Shown one piece after another: positions 1 through 21,760 of a stretch of 40,883 bases of DNA. The stretch covers positions 1 through 40,883 of the IMG/VR virus record IMGVR_UViG_3300048851_000077; one strand, given 5' to 3'. Each line of letters starts with the position of its first letter. Position 1 is the first letter of the stretch. The notes beneath the pieces were generated by a model. It did not search any database and was not told where the DNA came from. It saw nothing but the letters and a program-made list of their open reading frames with translations. The DNA is from a virus (lineage: Duplodnaviria; Caudoviricetes). A program made the position numbers and the translations under genes.

Positions 1-127
1 TCCTCCCGGTTTGTCTCCACCTCAGCCTTGCGGCCCCGCTTGAGTTCCTGCGGATTTCGCCCTCTGGCCCGCGCGACTTCGGCTTCGTCGGCAAAGCCCG
101 CCTTAACCAGCAGCTCCCACGCCGATG
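1..127. repeat. 127-bp terminal direct repeat (identical to 40757-40883); circular-contig overlap
   Basis: Exact identity of the first and last 127 nt; the portal reading frame continues across the join. Confidence 0.95.
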
Positions 128-8392: not shown

Positions 8393-9664
8393 TCAAGCCA
8401 GCCAGCCCGAGGGGTCCAGCGATACGGGCTTGGCGGCGCGTCTTGCTGCTGTCTTGCTGTGCAACGCGTCAAACCCTTGGGTGTCGAGCCAGCTATGCCA
8501 CTTGTCCAGGGCTGCGCGCTTCAGGGCCTCCCCTTGCGATTGGAAGTAGGTTGCCTCCAGATCCGTAAGCGCGTGATTCAACAGCAGCTTGGCGACCAGA
8601 CTGTCGACGTTCAGATCCGCCCAGGTCGTGCGAGAGAGCTTGCGCAGGTCGTGACTGCTCCACTCGCCATTACCGAGACGACGGAAAATCTCAAAGGACT
8701 GACCCCGTGACAGCGGTTTGCCGGGCTGCTTGGGCGACGGGAACAGATAAGCCCCGGCGTACCCCTTGGCTTTCTGCTGGTTGCGGTAGCGGGTCAAGAT
8801 GGCGATAGCCTGAGTGGTCAACGGTATGCGATGGTCGCGCCTTGATTTGGTGTGTGCGGCCGGAATGAACCACTCTCCCCCTGCGCTCAAACTGAGGTCT
8901 TTCCACTTCGCCAGGCGGGTTTCGCTGATCCGCGAACCGTGGGCCAGCATCATGGCTGCGAACGTCACGTCTACCGGCTTGCTGTCGTACTGGTCAGCCC
9001 ACACGGCCAACAGATCCACCACTTCGACGTGACGCAAGCGCGCGCCCTTGGGCCGGATCTTCTCTTTGCTGAAGTCGCCGAAGGTCACCCGCTCGATAGG
9101 GTTGATACGGATCTTTGACAGGCGCAGTGCCCGCCGAAAAGCGTTTTGCAGGACACCAAACACCGACTTGATGTGTGACAGGCCGCACTCGGCTTTCATG
9201 GGCCAGATCAAACGGTCGTCGATACGCGCCTTGTCCAGGGCATCAAGGCGCAGCGCACCGAGGCGCGGCAACAGATGGCAGCGAATGGCAGACAGAGTGG
9301 TCGCCCGACGCGTGCGGGTCAGGCCTCGGTCCAGCTCGACCCGGGCGGCAAACCACTCCAGCAGCTCGGCCACGGTTTCCCAGCCGTCCACAGTCGCTGC
9401 ACTGGCGGGGTCGACCGTCAGGCGCGCCATGACCCCGGGCAGGCTATCGAGCATCAGTCGCGCCGGCACATCCGGCCAGTTGCCGGCCTTTTTCCAGCGG
9501 CCGCCACGGTCGTATCGCACGACATACCAGCTGCCTCGCGCTCGGTCCTTGCGATACCGGAAGCGCAGCGGGTGCCGGGGGTCTTTCAGCTCAACGACGC
9601 GCTGATCGGCGGCATGCTTCTTTATAGAGGCATCAGAGAGTTGAATCTGCAAAGTCTTAGACAT
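8393..9664 (-). CDS. int: Tyrosine recombinase / integrase with N-terminal arm-binding-type domain
   Basis: Catalytic R (HGSRISE), K (HTKSRR), HxxR (HDLRK), H (LLNHA) and Y (EATYF) all present. Confidence 0.92.
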   Translation of the reverse strand: MSKTLQIQLSDASIKKHAADQRVVELKDPRHPLRFRYRKDRARGSWYVVRYDRGGRWKKAGNWPDVPARLMLDSLPGVMARLTVDPASAATVDGWETVAELLEWFAARVELDRGLTRTRRATTLSAIRCHLLPRLGALRLDALDKARIDDRLIWPMKAECGLSHIKSVFGVLQNAFRRALRLSKIRINPIERVTFGDFSKEKIRPKGARLRHVEVVDLLAVWADQYDSKPVDVTFAAMMLAHGSRISETRLAKWKDLSLSAGGEWFIPAAHTKSRRDHRIPLTTQAIAILTRYRNQQKAKGYAGAYLFPSPKQPGKPLSRGQSFEIFRRLGNGEWSSHDLRKLSRTTWADLNVDSLVAKLLLNHALTDLEATYFQSQGEALKRAALDKWHSWLDTQGFDALHSKTAARRAAKPVSLDPSGWLA

Positions 9665-9784
9665 ACAGGCAGGACTCAATAAAGCGCAGTCAAAACCTGC
9701 GCGAGCTGAATCGAGGCAAGCCGAGCCCGTAAGCGGTCACTTGCCTGATCAATAAAGTTGAAAGTCGTTATGCGTAACGCTTGG

Positions 9785-14330: not shown

Positions 14331-14975
14331 ATGGCTATCATCTTCGGCGTGCTGTCGCAGAAAGGCGGCCCAGGCAAATCAACGATTGTCCGCGGTGTTG
14401 CCGTGGCCCTCGCCCAGAACGATTGGTCGGTCAAGATTGCTGACTTTGACCTCAAGCAAATGACGTCGACCGAGTGGCTGCGTCGACGGCTGGCTAACAA
14501 CATCACCCCGACCGTCTCGGCCGAACCGTTCGCCAGTGTTGCCCAAGCGCTGCGTGATGCAGAACGTTACGACGCCATCATTCTGGACAGTAAGCCCGAG
14601 GCCAGCATGCTGACCGCCGATATCGCCAAGGCGTCCGATCTGATCATCATTCCAACGGGGCTGGCTACGGACGATCTGGCACCGGCGGTCGCACTGGCTG
14701 ACGAGCTGCGCAGTAAGCAGGGCATCCCCGCCGAACGCATCTTGTTTGTCATGAACCACGTCGGTGATAGTGCCTTGGAGCTTGAGGAAGCGCGTCAGTA
14801 TTTAGCCCACAAGCCCTACCAGATCCTTGACGCACACCTGCCCGAAAAGGTTGGCTACCGGCGCGCCATGGACACCGGCCGCTCGATCAGCGAAACGTCC
14901 TATAAGAGCCTCAACGAGCAGGCCGAGTTGGTACTGCAACAGATACTGACAAAAATAGACGAATTAACGAAATAA
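14331..14975 (+). CDS. parA: ParA-family partition ATPase (short, type Ib)
   Basis: Deviant Walker A QKGGPGKST, DFDLKQ, ILDS motifs; AAGGAG RBS. Confidence 0.93.
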   Translation: MAIIFGVLSQKGGPGKSTIVRGVAVALAQNDWSVKIADFDLKQMTSTEWLRRRLANNITPTVSAEPFASVAQALRDAERYDAIILDSKPEASMLTADIAKASDLIIIPTGLATDDLAPAVALADELRSKQGIPAERILFVMNHVGDSALELEEARQYLAHKPYQILDAHLPEKVGYRRAMDTGRSISETSYKSLNEQAELVLQQILTKIDELTK

Positions 14976-14996
14976 CGTGTTAACGTAATGACGTAC
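14957..14996 (+). repeat. Five tandem 8-bp repeats (centromere-like)
   Basis: agacgaat taacgaaa taacgtgt taacgtaa tgacgtac. Confidence 0.75.
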
Positions 14997-15016
14997 AACA
15001 GATCAGGATTTTAGCC

Positions 15017-15268
15017 ATGGCCGTAACAGCACCGAAGAAACCCACCCGCGCTACCAAGGGCACCCCGCCCGAATCGCCTGCTGCAACCCTGACTGGCGGT
15101 GGCATCACGTCCAAACCGTCGAGCAGCGATCAAGTCGCCCTGAATTTCTCTGTTCCAGCCGAATTCCGCAAGGAATACAAGTTGGCCGCCACTCAGAACG
15201 ACATGGCAATGGCTGACGTGCTCAAGGAATCGTTTCAACTGTTCAAAGAGAAACACGGCATGCAGTGA
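15017..15268 (+). CDS. ParG-like ribbon-helix-helix centromere-binding protein
   Basis: Flexible N-tail plus VALNFSVPAEFRKEYKLAATQNDMAMADVLKESF RHH; directly after parA. Confidence 0.85.
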   Translation: MAVTAPKKPTRATKGTPPESPAATLTGGGITSKPSSSDQVALNFSVPAEFRKEYKLAATQNDMAMADVLKESFQLFKEKHGMQ

Positions 15269-15663: not shown

Positions 15664-15696
15664 AAAAAACCCGCTTTGGCCGAAGCCGCAGCGGGT
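15664..15696 (-). terminator. Terminator of peptide B mRNA
   Basis: ACCCGC...GCGGGT followed by a T-run on the minus strand. Confidence 0.75.
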
Positions 15697-15746
15697 CTGA
15701 TCCCCGGTCAGCTCCTATTAAGCGAGCATTCCGGCTGAATTGGCTT

Positions 15747-15839
15747 TTATTCGCCTTTCCATAGGTCGCGGATGATTTCGTAAGCGATGTGAATCGCGAA
15801 CCGGATCATCAATCCTTTCAGTATATTTAGCATTTTCAT
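15747..15839 (-). CDS. 30-aa amphipathic peptide B (MKMLNILKGLMIRFAIHIAYEIIRDLWKGE), candidate type I toxin
   Basis: AGGGA RBS, own terminator, leader contains the complement of the sRNA B 5' end at 15906-15924. Confidence 0.7.
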   Translation of the reverse strand: MKMLNILKGLMIRFAIHIAYEIIRDLWKGE

Positions 15840-16220
15840 ACCAAGGTCCCTGAATCGACCTTACCCCCAGCGCTTTTCCGGAACACATGGCGGCCTTCGG
15901 GTGTGCGTCAACACTTCCTGTGAGGTTCGGTCAGGTTAAAGGGCCGCAGGTTAAATCCGCGCGGATTACTAGGCCCGCGCCCTTGGTCCAAAATCGTTAG
16001 AGCAACCTGGCTAAACACATCACGTTTCACATTCACGCGGGGCCAGTCTAGCGAGGTTGCACAGCGGGTGCCATCACTTATTGCAGTCAGACTGACGGGA
16101 TTTTGGGCGACTTGGAAAGGGGGGAACGCGTGCCCTTTACCGCCATACGCTTTGTAGGTATCTGTCAATTTATCTAATAAAACGCTTGCAAAGTCGATTT
16201 ACGTTTGTAAACATCATCAC

Positions 16221-16310
16221 ACGTCAACGCTTCCTGTGAGACGGTAGAAGGGCCACTAACCTGACTATCGAAAGAACAGAAAAAACCGCCCTACTAAGGC
16301 GGTTTTTTTT
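16221..16310 (+). ncRNA. sRNA B, candidate antitoxin for peptide B
   Basis: TTGCAA(16186)-17-AAACAT promoter; starts with CGTCAACGCTTCCTGTGAG; CCGCC-ctactaa-GGCGG-T8 terminator; no RBS-led ORF seen. Confidence 0.72.
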
Positions 16311-16440
16311 CGCCTGGAATTTACCGCTCCACGCGAAACACCCGCCCCACAGCCGCTCTAGATACATGCCCACAGCCGATAGACTCACCCAGGTGCGCGC
16401 AATGGGCCGAACCGCGAGCCCACAGCGCTTTTGCGCGGGC

Positions 16441-16473
16441 AAAAAAAAACCCGCCGGACCGAGGTCAGGCGGG
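16441..16473 (-). terminator. Terminator of peptide A mRNA
   Basis: CCCGCC-tgacctcggtcc-GGCGGG-T9 on the minus strand. Confidence 0.8.
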
Positions 16474-16482
16474 CGTGTAGCA

Positions 16483-16566
16483 TCAAGGCCAGTAATGATC
16501 GCGGAGCCGCGACAGGGTGTCATATACCCGGTACACATCCACGATGAGCCGCCATAATTTTTTCAT
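16483..16566 (-). CDS. 27-aa amphipathic peptide A (MKKLWRLIVDVYRVYDTLSRLRDHYWP), candidate type I toxin
   Basis: Strong AGGAGA RBS, immediate terminator, leader contains the perfect complement of the sRNA A 5' end at 16632-16649. Confidence 0.75.
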   Translation of the reverse strand: MKKLWRLIVDVYRVYDTLSRLRDHYWP

Positions 16567-17065
16567 GGCAACTATCTCCTACAGGGCCAACCTCAGCACG
16601 GTTACCGGAACCGCCGTGCCTTGGGGAAGCAGTCGAACGCTTCTTGTGAGGTGACCAATTCGTGGGCCCTTGGGCTAGTCCGGCGCGGGTTCTCAAGCCG
16701 CGTCACAGGGTCCGACCCATGCGACAAGCTGGCTGGGCCAAGCTAATCGCATGCGCTGGGTAACTTAATACCCCAAAAGCGATTCTTGACCAAACGATTC
16801 GACGATTATTTGAAAAATCTTTTGAAAACGATGCGTTAGGCTAGACAAGGTCGTGTTTTATCTATATAACGTGCGCCCCGTTTAACGAGCTCAAGTCATT
16901 TTCTATTGGTCTATTGAAATAAAGAACCAATAATACAAATTTTCAAAGTGAATAATTGCGCGTTTTGAAGAAACATCGCTTTTTGGTGCTTCATATTCGC
17001 TCATTCGCTTAAGAAGCCAATAATATTGTATTTACAAGTGTTGATTTAGGACCTACAGTCGGCTC

Positions 17066-17163
17066 GTCGAACGCTTCTTGTGATCTATACGTCACACTTT
17101 GCAAGGCGGACCTGCCTCACAGGCTCGCCGAAAAAAACCGCCCTCTCAAGGCGGTTTTTTTTT
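17066..17163 (+). ncRNA. sRNA A, candidate antitoxin for peptide A
   Basis: TTTACA(17031)-17-TACAGT(17054) promoter places +1 at the start of GTCGAACGCTTCTTGTGA; CCGCC-ctctcaa-GGCGG-T9 terminator. Confidence 0.78.
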
Positions 17164-18212: not shown

Positions 18213-18959
18213 TCAAGGCTTACGCTGACGCGCGTATGTCAAAAACGGTTCCAGGTCATCCGCGCACAGCAACGGCGCTACCCGCACAACCTCTTCATGG
18301 GGCCAGTGCCACCAGGCAATGGCAAGCAACTCGGCCCGGACTTCCTCGGGCAAGCGGTAGCGGATGACCTTGGCCGGTACGCCGCCAACAATGGCGTAGG
18401 GCGGCACATCGCGCGCGACCACTGCGCCGGTAGCCACGATGGCCCCGTCTCCAATCTTGACGCCGCTCAACAAGGTGGCGTTGGTGCAGATCCACACGTC
18501 ATTGCCAATAATCACATCACCGCGAGACGGTGGCTTTTCGGCAGCGGCCATGGACGGCAGGAATTCTGTAAACGGGTAGGTTGTGCCCCAATTGGCGGCA
18601 TGATCCCCGCCCAGCAATACACGGGCAGTCGCGGCTATCGAGGTGTAGGCCCCAATTTTCAACGACGTGCCATTAAAGAAATTTTGCACCACCGGTATGC
18701 CATAAGACCCCCGGCCTATCTCAAACTTGGGGTACTTCAGCAGGAATTCGGCCCGACCCCTTTCCTCTCTGGGCAGCTTACCGATCAACTTTTTAGCGAG
18801 TCTTCGTTGCTGACTTTTTGCCGCCGAGCGCCCTAAAAACAGGCGAGCCGCACGCACACGCAGTGACTGATGAACGGCTTGCAGCACGTCCAGCACGGGA
18901 TCGTTCGCCCCTGCCACGGTCGCGTTCGCTTGGTCATTACGGTAAGACTTTTCTTGCAC
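18213..18959 (-). CDS. CatB/Vat-related hexapeptide-repeat O-acetyltransferase (start uncertain)
   Basis: [59 protein letters not shown] motifs. Confidence 0.9.
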
Positions 18960-19479: not shown

Positions 19480-19905
19480 CTATGCCGCCGCTTCAATACT
19501 CAACGTTATGCGGCGGCCCAGCAGGCTCAACGCCCGTTCAACCTGTTCGATTTTCGAGGTATGCAGAAAATCGACCAGTCGGTCTACCACCTGCCGCGTG
19601 CTGCCCATACGACGAGCCAGCTCAGCGCGGCTGACCCCTTCGTCTAACAAACTGTTCCACAACATGACTTTGGCGACGGTCAAGGCGGGCAGGTGCAGCG
19701 GGGTCATACCCTCAGTCAGCGGTGACGCCTCGGGGATCTTGCGACGCTGATCAACGTACAGCGAGAACGTCGATTCCATGCCGTCCAGGGCATCGGCAAA
19801 TGCCTCTTCAGGCGTGTCACCCGAGGCGTTCATTTCCGGAAGGTCTGGGCAGGATACCCACGCGCCGGTAGGTTCAATGTGCAGTTCTAGCGGGTACTGA
19901 TACAT
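19480..19905 (-). CDS. hicB: HicB antitoxin with C-terminal HTH
   Basis: VSCPDLPEMNASGDTPEEAFADA; C-terminal SRAELARRMG HTH. Confidence 0.92.
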   Translation of the reverse strand: MYQYPLELHIEPTGAWVSCPDLPEMNASGDTPEEAFADALDGMESTFSLYVDQRRKIPEASPLTEGMTPLHLPALTVAKVMLWNSLLDEGVSRAELARRMGSTRQVVDRLVDFLHTSKIEQVERALSLLGRRITLSIEAAA

Positions 19906-19938
19906 AAGCGGCCTCATCTGGTAGAGGAACAGCAGGCC

Positions 19939-20230: not shown

Positions 20231-21760
20231 TTATTCGCCCGGCTGGGCCCGGTAATCGGTGCAAAGTCCGGCACGATGCAGGCGCTCGGTCAGAATCTTG
20301 TGAGACGCGAAAGCCGTGTTGCGTTCGTTTTCCAGCAATGCCTGCTCACGCTCCAGACCTTCCACCTTGGCCGCCAGCACTTTCAAAGCCTCAACCGCTC
20401 CCACATGCTGCACCTGACGGCGGACCTCGTCGGGCAAGCCGTGCGTACAAGGCCTGGCGATGCCCCGGCCCACATTCTTGAAGCGCTCCTTGGCACAGCC
20501 CCCAGCTGATTCCGAGCCGCCGAGCTGCCACTCTTCCGAATCACGCTTGTACTGCCGCACAAAACCGGCCGGACTGCTCAAGCGCGGCTTGGCCTGCGTC
20601 ACGTCCAGTAGCTCGTACAACTCCAAGGTCACCGACAGCAGCATCTGATACCGGCAATTCAAAGCGGACTTGTCGTTGAGCGCCTTGCCCAACAAATTGC
20701 GCAATTGAGGATCTTCGGGGTAAGCCTGCTCAGGCGGCGTAGCCGCTACGAGCCGCTCATTACGCTGCGCCCAAGCCAGCAGGCTACGATCCCGAAGCGG
20801 CAACAGCTGCGTCACCACCTCGTCATAAGTGGGCTCTTGATGGATGCTCGCAAGCCGTCGCAACTCGCTTTCGAACTCGATGCGTACCGCATCAAATTCG
20901 CTGCCTTGTACCAACCCGTCATCGTGAATGACCCGCACGCCGCTGTCGGGCTGGGTCGCCCCGGGCTCGCGCAGCTGCATGATCAGCGCTTTTTCCGCTT
21001 CGGTCAGAATGACCGGCTTCATTTGCCGAGCCTTGCGCCGCTCGCGTAGATCCTTCTGGCGCTGCGCCGGGGTGCGGGGCACCTTGGCGGCAGGCGCATC
21101 GCCGAACATCGCCAGCTGCCCGTCCGGGCGTACCCCCGCCAGCGCTTCAGACAACCACGTCGGCGCCTTCTTGCCGCGCAAGCTCTCCCCGTATTCCGGC
21201 CTGATGGCCTTGGGCTTACCCTCGCTCGCCATGATGGCCTGCGCTTTCAAACGGACGGCCTGCTCTACCGTTTTGCCCAGGTGCGCGGTAACCGTCAGCG
21301 TGTCCCAGCGGTAGCCTGTATCGCTCAGAAACGGCTTATCCAGATCCACTGCGTGAAACGTCACAGGGTGATGATTGCCCAGCATGTTGGCCGACAGCTC
21401 AACACGAGCCCGCATGCCGTCGACTTCCAACAGGAACTCGCCCGACTGCCCCCAGTGCGGCACCTGCCCCGGCGCGGCGGCGACTGCGCGGTCCAGCACA
21501 TGGCCGGCGCTGTCATCGTCACCTTTGCAGCCAAAAAAGGTATTCCCGTTAAGCACGTACACCAGCGCTTCAAAGGCCGTTTCGGCCTCGTCCAGGGCGG
21601 CGACATGGCCGGCCAGCACGGCGTCGTGGTAGTGCTCTGCCGCTTTGCGCGCCAAGAAGGGAAAGTCGGCCGGGTCAGTCTCGGCCAGCGCGACCAGTTG
21701 CGCCAGAAATTCCGGGCGCTCTTCCCGGGGCAGGTCTTTTGGGGCGGATTTACGGGCCAC
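20231..21760 (-). CDS. KlcB-like protein (IncP kil/kor family), 509 aa
   Basis: YHDAVLAG...LNGNTFFGC...AAAPGQVPHWGQSGEFLLEVDGMR...HAVDLDKPFLSDTGYR resembles KlcB; adjacent to a KorC-like gene. Confidence 0.7.
   Translation of the reverse strand: MARKSAPKDLPREERPEFLAQLVALAETDPADFPFLARKAAEHYHDAVLAGHVAALDEAETAFEALVYVLNGNTFFGCKGDDDSAGHVLDRAVAAAPGQVPHWGQSGEFLLEVDGMRARVELSANMLGNHHPVTFHAVDLDKPFLSDTGYRWDTLTVTAHLGKTVEQAVRLKAQAIMASEGKPKAIRPEYGESLRGKKAPTWLSEALAGVRPDGQLAMFGDAPAAKVPRTPAQRQKDLRERRKARQMKPVILTEAEKALIMQLREPGATQPDSGVRVIHDDGLVQGSEFDAVRIEFESELRRLASIHQEPTYDEVVTQLLPLRDRSLLAWAQRNERLVAATPPEQAYPEDPQLRNLLGKALNDKSALNCRYQMLLSVTLELYELLDVTQAKPRLSSPAGFVRQYKRDSEEWQLGGSESAGGCAKERFKNVGRGIARPCTHGLPDEVRRQVQHVGAVEALKVLAAKVEGLEREQALLENERNTAFASHKILTERLHRAGLCTDYRAQPGE

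Follow-up and report, generated by a model that had tools for sequence, protein, structure and literature searches.

The type I toxin-antitoxin (TA) class is described with toxin peptides of 20-60 amino acids (aa) on mRNAs of 150-400 nucleotides (nt) (PMC8594479). The tisB/IstR-1, shoB/OhsC, zorO/OrzO-zorP/OrzP and dinQ/AgrB genes are divergent and non-overlapping (PMC4147584, PMC3919570, PMC8594479), and about 18-21 nt at the 5′ end of the small RNA (sRNA) are complementary to a long 5′ untranslated region, distant from the start codon. The translation of timP requires a pseudoknot between the stem-loops SL1 and SL3, the antitoxin TimR binds SL2, and SL4 hides the Shine-Dalgarno (SD) sequence (PMC11228461, PMC13000454). 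In the Fst RNA I/RNA II pair of par(pAD1), two dispersed contacts are made, and kissing starts where a terminator loop meets a YUNR U-turn of the toxin mRNA (PMC7472228). Here, a virus record of 40,883 nt (Duplodnaviria; Caudoviricetes; IMG/VR IMGVR_UViG_3300048851_000077, positions 1 to 40,883), further called the window, was analyzed. Between positions 15,664 and 17,163 it carries two tandem modules, each composed of a minus-strand short open reading frame (ORF) with a long leader and a plus-strand sRNA, and their layout matches that of the tisB/shoB/zor/dinQ class (PMC4147584).

Based on the whole analysis, it was concluded that the sRNA almost certainly regulates the peptide mRNA. Complementarity and covariation were found at two sites, the leader helices were conserved and the peptides were under selection. 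Judged from these sequence features, each window module is likely to be a type I TA pair of an undescribed Pseudomonas family, and the module family is probably a new type I TA family. As to the fuller picture, we lean slightly towards a widespread Pseudomonas TA family with a two-key lock, in which a 5′ seed and kissing by either of two redundant sRNA loops would act on a pseudoknot switch.

The initial annotation of this locus had proposed two paralogous RNA-antitoxin systems marked by four copies of a short motif in two matched pairs. Both pairs were present, 19 nt long with one difference in module 1 and identical over 18 nt in module 2, and the sole mismatch corresponded to a G-U pair. 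The module-1 repeat pattern gave 2 matches against 0.00 expected (100 shuffles), and the pattern finding the module-2 pair gave 2 against 0.12 expected by shuffling. The coordinates and translations of both micro-ORFs were correct, the seed targets lay 66 nt (module 1) and 65 nt (module 2) upstream of the ATG, and both sRNAs terminated in CCGCC-N7-GGCGG-T-run hairpins, with folding z-scores of -3.6 and -4.85. Each ORF had been assigned a ribosome-binding site (RBS) and its own terminator; the terminators were found, the RBS of ORF 1 was weak and partly within a hairpin, and ORF 2 was preceded by an SD-like TAGGAGA. Of the sigma70-like promoters claimed for both sRNAs, a consensus scan recovered that of sRNA 2 only. 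Since the scan alone was uninformative (2 sites in 3 kb, 1.3 by chance), the sRNA promoters rest on family conservation. No convincing promoter candidate was found upstream of mRNA 2. Between the -35 and -10 elements of sRNA 1 an inverted repeat, TTTAC-N3-GTAAA (16200-16213), was observed, which was kept in two plasmid homologues and may be an operator.

Further, the leader profile placed both window modules in one unannotated family, in line with their proposed paralogy. A peptide profile of 19 rows gave matches at E≤0.05 in 106 of 401 Pseudomonas genomes, i.e. about a quarter of those sampled, the weakest matches not all being verified. Thirty returned loci, 60 further stretches picked for diversity and the earlier loci contained 114 peptide matches, and a leader-profile match was present upstream of all but four real ones; the stretches L096 and L122 had no peptide match. 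The analyzed set comprised 108 modules from Pseudomonas chromosomes, plasmids and phages, some of them near-identical. Three matches without a clear start, one weak match (E 0.68), L082 (sRNA not found) and a second copy in L060 (truncated leader) were left out. For nine modules, the omitted L082 among them, the first pass had returned a paralogous leader or nothing credible, and their sRNA search was refitted. A typical module consisted of a structured leader of ~185 nt, a peptide of 27-40 aa and an sRNA of ~85 nt. The layout was divergent in 106 modules; in the other two, L040 and L005 (positions 1450-1945; pWW0, NC_003350.1), the sRNA lay upstream of the peptide mRNA on the same strand. The pWW0 module is missing from the annotation table of that plasmid and adjoins a RelE/ParE type II pair and ligD.

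The sRNA 5′ seed was complementary to its own leader, with a median target at -89 to -68 from the ATG. Seed-target co-conservation in homologues, set beforehand as a test of the proposal, was observed over the 108 modules, which carried 97 distinct seeds. The duplex energies were -39.2 ± 4.4 kcal/mol for cognate and -18.3 ± 6.4 kcal/mol for non-cognate combinations, a contrast that is partly circular because the seeds were located by the best duplex. For 74 of the 108 leaders no sRNA bound better than the cognate one, which was among the top three for 99. The window duplexes reached -40.3 and -33.1 kcal/mol when cognate, and -25.9 and -25.7 kcal/mol when crossed; among co-located modules, crossed pairing was weaker than cognate pairing in seven of eight external pairs as well as in the window, the exception being L061. 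Support independent of the duplex search was provided by the position of the seed, which directly followed a promoter-like motif in 103 of the 108 modules, and by the sRNA ending at a terminator after 79-98 nt. This motif, a loose fit to TT[G/T]nnn-16..18-[T/A]AnnnT for which no shuffle control exists, ended ≤10 nt from the seed start in those 103 sRNAs and had a 17-nt spacer in 77. In Pseudomonas silvicola the same one-base insertion was present in both seed and target, and in pWW0, which has the same-strand layout, the seed was entirely different and its target matched it. The modules resemble the type I class in having an adjacent RNA gene complementary to the mRNA, with seed covariation over the 108 modules, and an ORF of 27-40 aa with its own terminator. 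They share with the tisB/shoB/zor/dinQ group the extent and the remote position of the 5′ complementarity, as well as tandem paralogues with unlike seeds, and differ from it in the Pseudomonas location and in the same-strand layout of the two modules.

A second contact was found in addition to the seed. In 106 of the 108 modules, the loop of a conserved leader hairpin was complementary, by at least 4 Watson-Crick pairs, to one or both of two sRNA loops, the middle loop and the terminator loop (both loops in 55, the middle loop only in 27, the terminator loop only in 24); the other 2 modules matched neither. When the partners were permuted 10,000 times, the mean was 33 and the maximum 48. With one representative per 75%-identity cluster, 22 of 24 matched, compared with a mean of 7.7 and a maximum of 15 in 20,000 permutations. 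In a sliding control along the leader the signal peaked at the hairpin loop (0.94, median 0.07). An intramolecular partner for the leader loop was sought and rejected, the best bin being 0.23. The 2 modules with neither loop matched were fewer than the 7 predicted under independence (Fisher p 0.011), and by sequence the two sRNA loops appear to back each other up.

The leader loop cores were UAGUA (40 modules), UUGCA (15), UGAGA (14), UAGGA (12), UGGAA (7) and UACGA (6), followed by UCGCA, UUGCU and CACGA (4 each) and two singletons. In the window, UAGUA was matched by UACUA/CACUA in module 1 and UGAGA by UCUCA/CCUCA in module 2. About 23 loop-class changes were counted by parsimony on a module tree from which the loop columns had been removed, a tree with many weak nodes and likely recombination. 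The modules L005 and L040, a near-identical pair with a common seed, differed in the loop on both RNAs, and six leaders of the largest clade had UUGCA matched by the middle loop alone. L054 already combined the new middle loop with a leader loop of the old type, which points to a stepping-stone route between specificities. The order of the contacts was consistent with antiparallel pairing, the 5′ seed meeting the downstream target and the 3′ loops the upstream hairpin.

As in par(pAD1), two dispersed contacts were present, and 82 of the 108 leader loops contained a YUNR motif, a count given without a chance control. Unlike in par(pAD1), where the genes are convergent and the loops are complementary via one common bidirectional terminator (PMC7472228), the antitoxin terminator loop would pair here with a 5′-leader loop encoded elsewhere, and therefore the loop match needs compensatory evolution. 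No module had the convergent layout of par/Fst-Ldr (106 divergent, 2 same-strand). One recognition domain has been reported for zorO-orzO (PMC3919570) and two were found here; a distal loop-loop contact through two redundant sRNA loops was likewise absent from the portions of the timP/TimR descriptions compared.

The helices of the leader were read by eye and then tested, because RNAalifold recovered hardly any structure from the first alignment. In a diverse subset of 55 of the 108 leaders, 81.9% of cells paired and 24 of 31 pairs showed double changes, the structure having been read from the same sequences, which favors it; none of 500 shuffles scored as high and slid controls reached at most 48.9% paired. 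Pairing amounted to 95.6% for hairpin P3, 90.2% for a long-range helix and 80.7% for a hairpin at the SD sequence (helix 7). Unbiased covariation recovered the leader hairpin, the long-range helix (-121..-116 with -43..-39) and the hairpin bearing its 3′ strand. The long-range helix crosses its neighbors and is thus a pseudoknot, two pairs of which were among the top pairs by mutual information with average product correction. The seed target was located between the two pseudoknot strands. In these respects the leaders are like that of timP. The timP leader, too, is long, one of its hairpins sequesters the SD sequence, and a stem-loop domain further upstream forms a covarying pseudoknot with a loop located downstream; the antitoxin site lies between the two pseudoknot partners, some 50-65 nt upstream of the RBS.

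The peptides had a basic N-terminus, and 80 of 81 carried Arg-Asp near the C-terminus. Ratios of nonsynonymous to synonymous polymorphism (pN/pS) of 0.13-0.49 in four clades, obtained by a rough pairwise count, point to purifying selection. AlphaFold predicted a single helix with a pLDDT (predicted local distance difference test) of 85.6. The PXXXG motif was absent from the 35-row peptide alignment as read, and no Pfam match was obtained. Compared with timP, the peptides are shorter and amphipathic, and no Rfam or Pfam match links the two.

It was proposed that the amphipathic peptide would act on the membrane and that the sRNA would silence its translation via two co-evolving leader sites. 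First, a leader hairpin would lie over the RBS, for which the partial SD pairing speaks, and the long-range pseudoknot helix can form, as the covariation shows; by analogy with timP, the pseudoknot state would be the translation-competent one (PMC11228461). Second, one sRNA loop would kiss the complementary, covarying hairpin loop that adjoins the pseudoknot 5′ strand. Third, the free 5′ seed would pair with the complementary ~18-22 nt between the pseudoknot strands and would break the pseudoknot and/or trigger RNase III cleavage. Finally, if the sRNA were lost, together with the element or because its transcription is shut off, synthesis of the peptide would follow and the cell would stall or die. 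In the phage, the most likely use would be the maintenance of a circular prophage beside its partition genes, and the unlike seeds and loops would stop cross-neutralization between the two paralogues. Repression, pseudoknot-gated translation, toxicity and the maintenance role are thus what we infer. By analogy, the modules would work like divergent type I TA systems, most like timP/TimR, with a par-like kissing step of different anatomy. By sequence, it is a member of none of the tisB/shoB/zor/dinQ, timP/TimR and par families.

The proposal of two paralogous RNA-antitoxin systems was therefore supported by the seed-target co-conservation, the prevailing divergent layout and the lack of a match to a described family; the loop-loop contact, the leader pseudoknot and the breadth of the family had escaped that annotation. 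Of the earlier likening to tisB and dinQ, the divergent arrangement stood, and timP/TimR took their place as the closest mechanistic analogue. Unlike tisB/dinQ, none of the 108 modules had a LexA-like box, the AT-rich CTG-N10-CAG form being the type searched, and SOS control was rejected for want of such a box. Translational coupling to the downstream gene was considered and rejected as well.

Several observations weigh against the TA reading, in addition to the circularity already mentioned. The main doubt concerns the predicted toxicity, since the peptides are amphipathic rather than hydrophobic: over 19 residues, the Kyte-Doolittle mean reached 1.6 in none of 81 (the highest value was 1.31, and peptide 2 had only 0.15), and the hydrophobic moment exceeded 95% of shuffles in only 41 of 81. 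In this they differ from hydrophobic transmembrane type I toxins (PMC8309996) and probably from the tisB/shoB/zor/dinQ group, as they appear to lack a hydrophobic transmembrane stretch; an amphipathic helix has been reported for some type I toxins (PMC8309996). An addiction role is also not obvious for many copies, because these are located in ordinary chromosomal spacers. The same properties, together with the near-invariant Arg-Asp, which suggests a specific partner, would fit a peptide that is under the same RNA control and is not a toxin. Such a peptide could be a small membrane-surface regulator, e.g. of a transporter or of a phage receptor in superinfection exclusion, switched on when the sRNA falls. 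This was considered unlikely, since several features of the family are typical of TA modules (PMC3919570): an antisense RNA of its own lies next to the peptide gene, the seeds change fast and are specific to each paralogue, tandem copies occur (L114, L125, L131 and L061), and no neighbor gene is constant.

In L061, the leader of the module starting at 1500 was bound weakly by its own sRNA (-18.7 kcal/mol) and fitted that of the neighboring paralogue (-37.1 kcal/mol); its antitoxin may be decaying, with the sister module standing in. The loop core was fixed after the data had been inspected, and the loop windows take in stem bases, through which the AGG class cross-matched sRNAs of the AGT class at 0.90. 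It could be argued that the seed contact alone is functional and that the loop complementarity is a relic of gene conversion or of a duplication of leader DNA that formed the sRNA gene, as both contacts are direct DNA repeats in divergent modules and the loops are common to clades by descent. This was judged highly improbable. The matches span only 4-7 nt in non-homologous flanks, and many joint switches have occurred, including that of L005/L040 and the repeated change from UAGUA to UUGCA tracked by the middle loop only. Moreover, in the same-strand layout the complementarity persists as inverted repeats.

The folding of single leaders was also less favorable to the TA reading. Hairpin P3 was present in 60 of 108 family folds and in the minimum-energy fold of neither window leader, leader 1 folded no better than shuffles (z 0.0), and SD masking was modest (unpaired probability 0.30 against 0.36 overall, <0.35 in 61 of 108). 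The pseudoknot-ready fold of the window leaders lay ~7 kcal/mol above the minimum. Before loop costs, the pseudoknot helix would contribute ~-5.7 and -10.3 kcal/mol, and by these computed energies the gap is compatible with a switch. A loop-binding RNA could also capture the P3/pseudoknot-ready fold, and the sRNA would then act as an activator, its loop and seed binding stabilizing this conformation and opening the RBS. We regard this as very doubtful: a near-perfect duplex of 18-22 bp between the pseudoknot strands, ~65 nt from the start codon, resembles the repressors IstR-1, OrzO and TimR, and the seed shows no pairing to the anti-SD strand.

Repression in a TA system therefore stayed the preferred reading, and its novelty was assessed against the databases. 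The peptides, which the initial annotation had not recognized as any named toxin, and the sRNAs matched no family in Rfam, Pfam, NCBIfam, PHROG or PDB. In the window, Rfam gave 14 matches at E≤5, none at family level; OrzO-P scored 24.4 bits (gathering 60) and AgrB 20.6 bits (gathering 40), which are terminator-level scores. At gathering, only ErsA/Pseudomon-1 and one tRNA were matched in 14 homologous loci, beside two of them. Neither timP (RyfA) nor TimR was among these window or homologue matches. RyfA is one of the Rfam families. No family match was obtained in Pfam, NCBIfam, PADLOC, PDB sequences or the ESM Atlas, and PHROGs gave three single-member matches (E 0.025-0.08). Hence, the sequences differ from the tisB/shoB/zor/dinQ group, to which only the terminator-level Rfam scores and no Pfam or NCBIfam match relate. 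The family, including four peptide motifs, was not described in the literature searched, the scope of which left out subscription papers, T1TAdb and Pseudomonas sRNA catalogues; single RNAs of the family may already be catalogued without function. In the available tables of Fozo 2010 (PMC2887945), supplement file 3 lying outside the search, the family motif was in no Pseudomonas row. The T1TAdb 'hok-sok' entry of DC3000 was rejected as a family member, being a different 46-aa peptide.

Blastn returned 20 plasmid records, 18 from Pseudomonas or uncultured sources and two from Vibrio that were terminator-only matches, and five of five plasmid records examined carried modules. Three of five related phages found via ParA had one or two modules beside ParA. 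No real match was found among GenBank phages by blastn or tblastn, and two exact-pattern scans of viral contigs gave zero matches. A family-wide profile search gave matches in 12 of 301 genomes. A class-wide search of 401 genomes gave matches at E≤0.05 in 13, of which two strong ones were already-known loci and 11 (E 0.015-0.05) were treated as chance. By profile search, 52 matches were obtained among 1.84 billion representatives; the top one, a 422-aa repeat protein, was a chance match, and 20 weaker short ones looked up were unnamed or 'hypothetical protein', those with a species name all being from Pseudomonas. The neighbors (73 of 116 listed flanking ORFs, 20 loci) differed by locus and included housekeeping spacers, prophage genes, plasmid par and umuDC-like genes. 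At the locus L114 (G317:C3:49156-51852), three modules, each with a different seed, stood in tandem; they immediately adjoined the ErsA/Pseudomon-1 sRNA and lay between polA-like and dsbA-like genes. The plasmid modules L001 and L002 adjoined umuDC-like genes (S24 peptidase and Y-family polymerase), and on P. silvicola p2 the module stretch was present twice.

The IncI/IncB rep genes are under pseudoknot/antisense control. A comparable antisense-controlled leader peptide regulating a neighboring gene (replication, partition or SOS polymerase) is most improbable here: a pseudoknot, a kissing loop and a short ORF do co-occur, the modules follow parA in the window and three related phages, and two plasmid copies abut umuDC-like genes, but each ORF is followed by its own terminator, the downstream genes are often oppositely oriented and the neighbors vary by locus.

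The coordinates of the features of both modules are collected in Table 1.

Table 1. Observed and predicted features of the two window modules
Feature	Position	Strand	Remark
Intrinsic terminator, mRNA 1	15664..15696	-	from sequence; kept in plasmid homologues
Peptide 1 ORF, 30 aa	15747..15839	-	predicted single amphipathic helix; family Arg-Asp motif
Hairpin partly covering ORF 1 SD (predicted)	15843..15862	-	family helix 7, 80.7% paired
Long-range (pseudoknot) helix 3′ strand, leader 1	15878..15884	-	within hairpin loop
Seed target, leader 1	15906..15924	-	
Long-range (pseudoknot) helix 5′ strand, leader 1	15955..15961	-	
Hairpin P3, leader 1	15959..15980	-	loop core UAGUA 15967-15971, complementary to both sRNA 1 loops
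Predicted mRNA 1 promoter	16045..16074	-	ATGGCA-18-TAGACT; recurs in close homologues
Predicted sRNA 1 promoter	16186..16214	+	TTGCAA-17-AAACAT
sRNA 1	16221..16310	+	seed 16222-16240; middle loop 16253-16259; terminator 16286-16302; terminator loop 16291-16297
Intrinsic terminator, mRNA 2	16441..16473	-	
Peptide 2 ORF, 27 aa	16483..16566	-	amphipathic; Arg-Asp motif; SD-like TAGGAGA 16575-16581
Hairpin carrying pseudoknot helix 3′ strand, leader 2	16596..16619	-	
Seed target, leader 2	16632..16649	-	
Pseudoknot 5′ strand and hairpin P3, leader 2	16678..16702	-	5′ strand 16678-16684; P3 16684-16702 (loop core UGAGA)
Predicted sRNA 2 promoter	17031..17059	+	TTTACA-17-TACAGT; consensus scan
sRNA 2	17064..17163	+	seed 17066-17083; middle hairpin 17111-17123; terminator 17138-17154 (loop CUCUCAA)

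The window is a whole virus record of 40.9 kb with a 127-nt end repeat, and thus is probably circular. It encodes a terminase, capsid, P2-like tail, lysozyme, tyrosine recombinase (8393-9679), CI-like repressor and a ParA ATPase with a small ParG-like partner (14331-15268, plus strand), and judged by this gene content it is a temperate phage or phage-plasmid. Pseudomonas is the presumed host, because the homologues lie there. Both modules sit just downstream of the partition genes. No replication gene was identified in the window, and 20231-21760 gave no family match. A hexapeptide-repeat acetyltransferase gene resembling CatB/Vat (18213-18959, minus strand) scored ~120 bits, far below the curated cut-offs of 300-350, and a HicB-like antitoxin gene (19480-19917, minus strand) had no HicA partner among the ORFs scanned. 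A direct repeat-like short pair, GCCCACAGCCG twice, was located at 16340-16385, between the terminators of sRNA 1 and mRNA 2.

In a soil metatranscriptome, which comes from a different study than the DNA probably does, one identical contig of 310 nt (15715-16024, depth 73.6) ran into adapter at 16024, and several other identical short contigs of the phage had a depth of 2-5.5. The 310-nt contig lies wholly within the predicted mRNA 1 and stops ~14 nt inside its predicted start, although contigs cannot map ends. It is a weak hint of expression, because neither strand nor ends nor level can be read from contigs and the library may contain DNA. No contig of this run covered module 2 or either sRNA, which is no evidence either way, and a third RNA run gave terminator-like fragments only.

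When 339 P. syringae genomes were surveyed, the systems reported were nearly all of type II, with a single predicted type I locus (PMC8790059). A family matched in about a quarter of the sampled Pseudomonas genomes, on pWW0 (TOL) and in temperate phages would therefore fill a large gap. Pseudoknot-gated translation of a toxin, which has been shown for tisB and timP, is suggested outside enterobacteria too. The ~100 natural seed/loop variants would offer ready orthogonal RNA switches and plasmid-maintenance parts for Pseudomonas. The redundant second loop contact provides a testable answer to how the specificity of an antisense antitoxin changes without a lethal intermediate. If the proposal is true, the spare loop can drift, so that new specificities arise by neutral steps, for which L054 and L068, two sister modules, would be an example; phages, plasmids and chromosomes could then harbor many orthogonal copies side by side.

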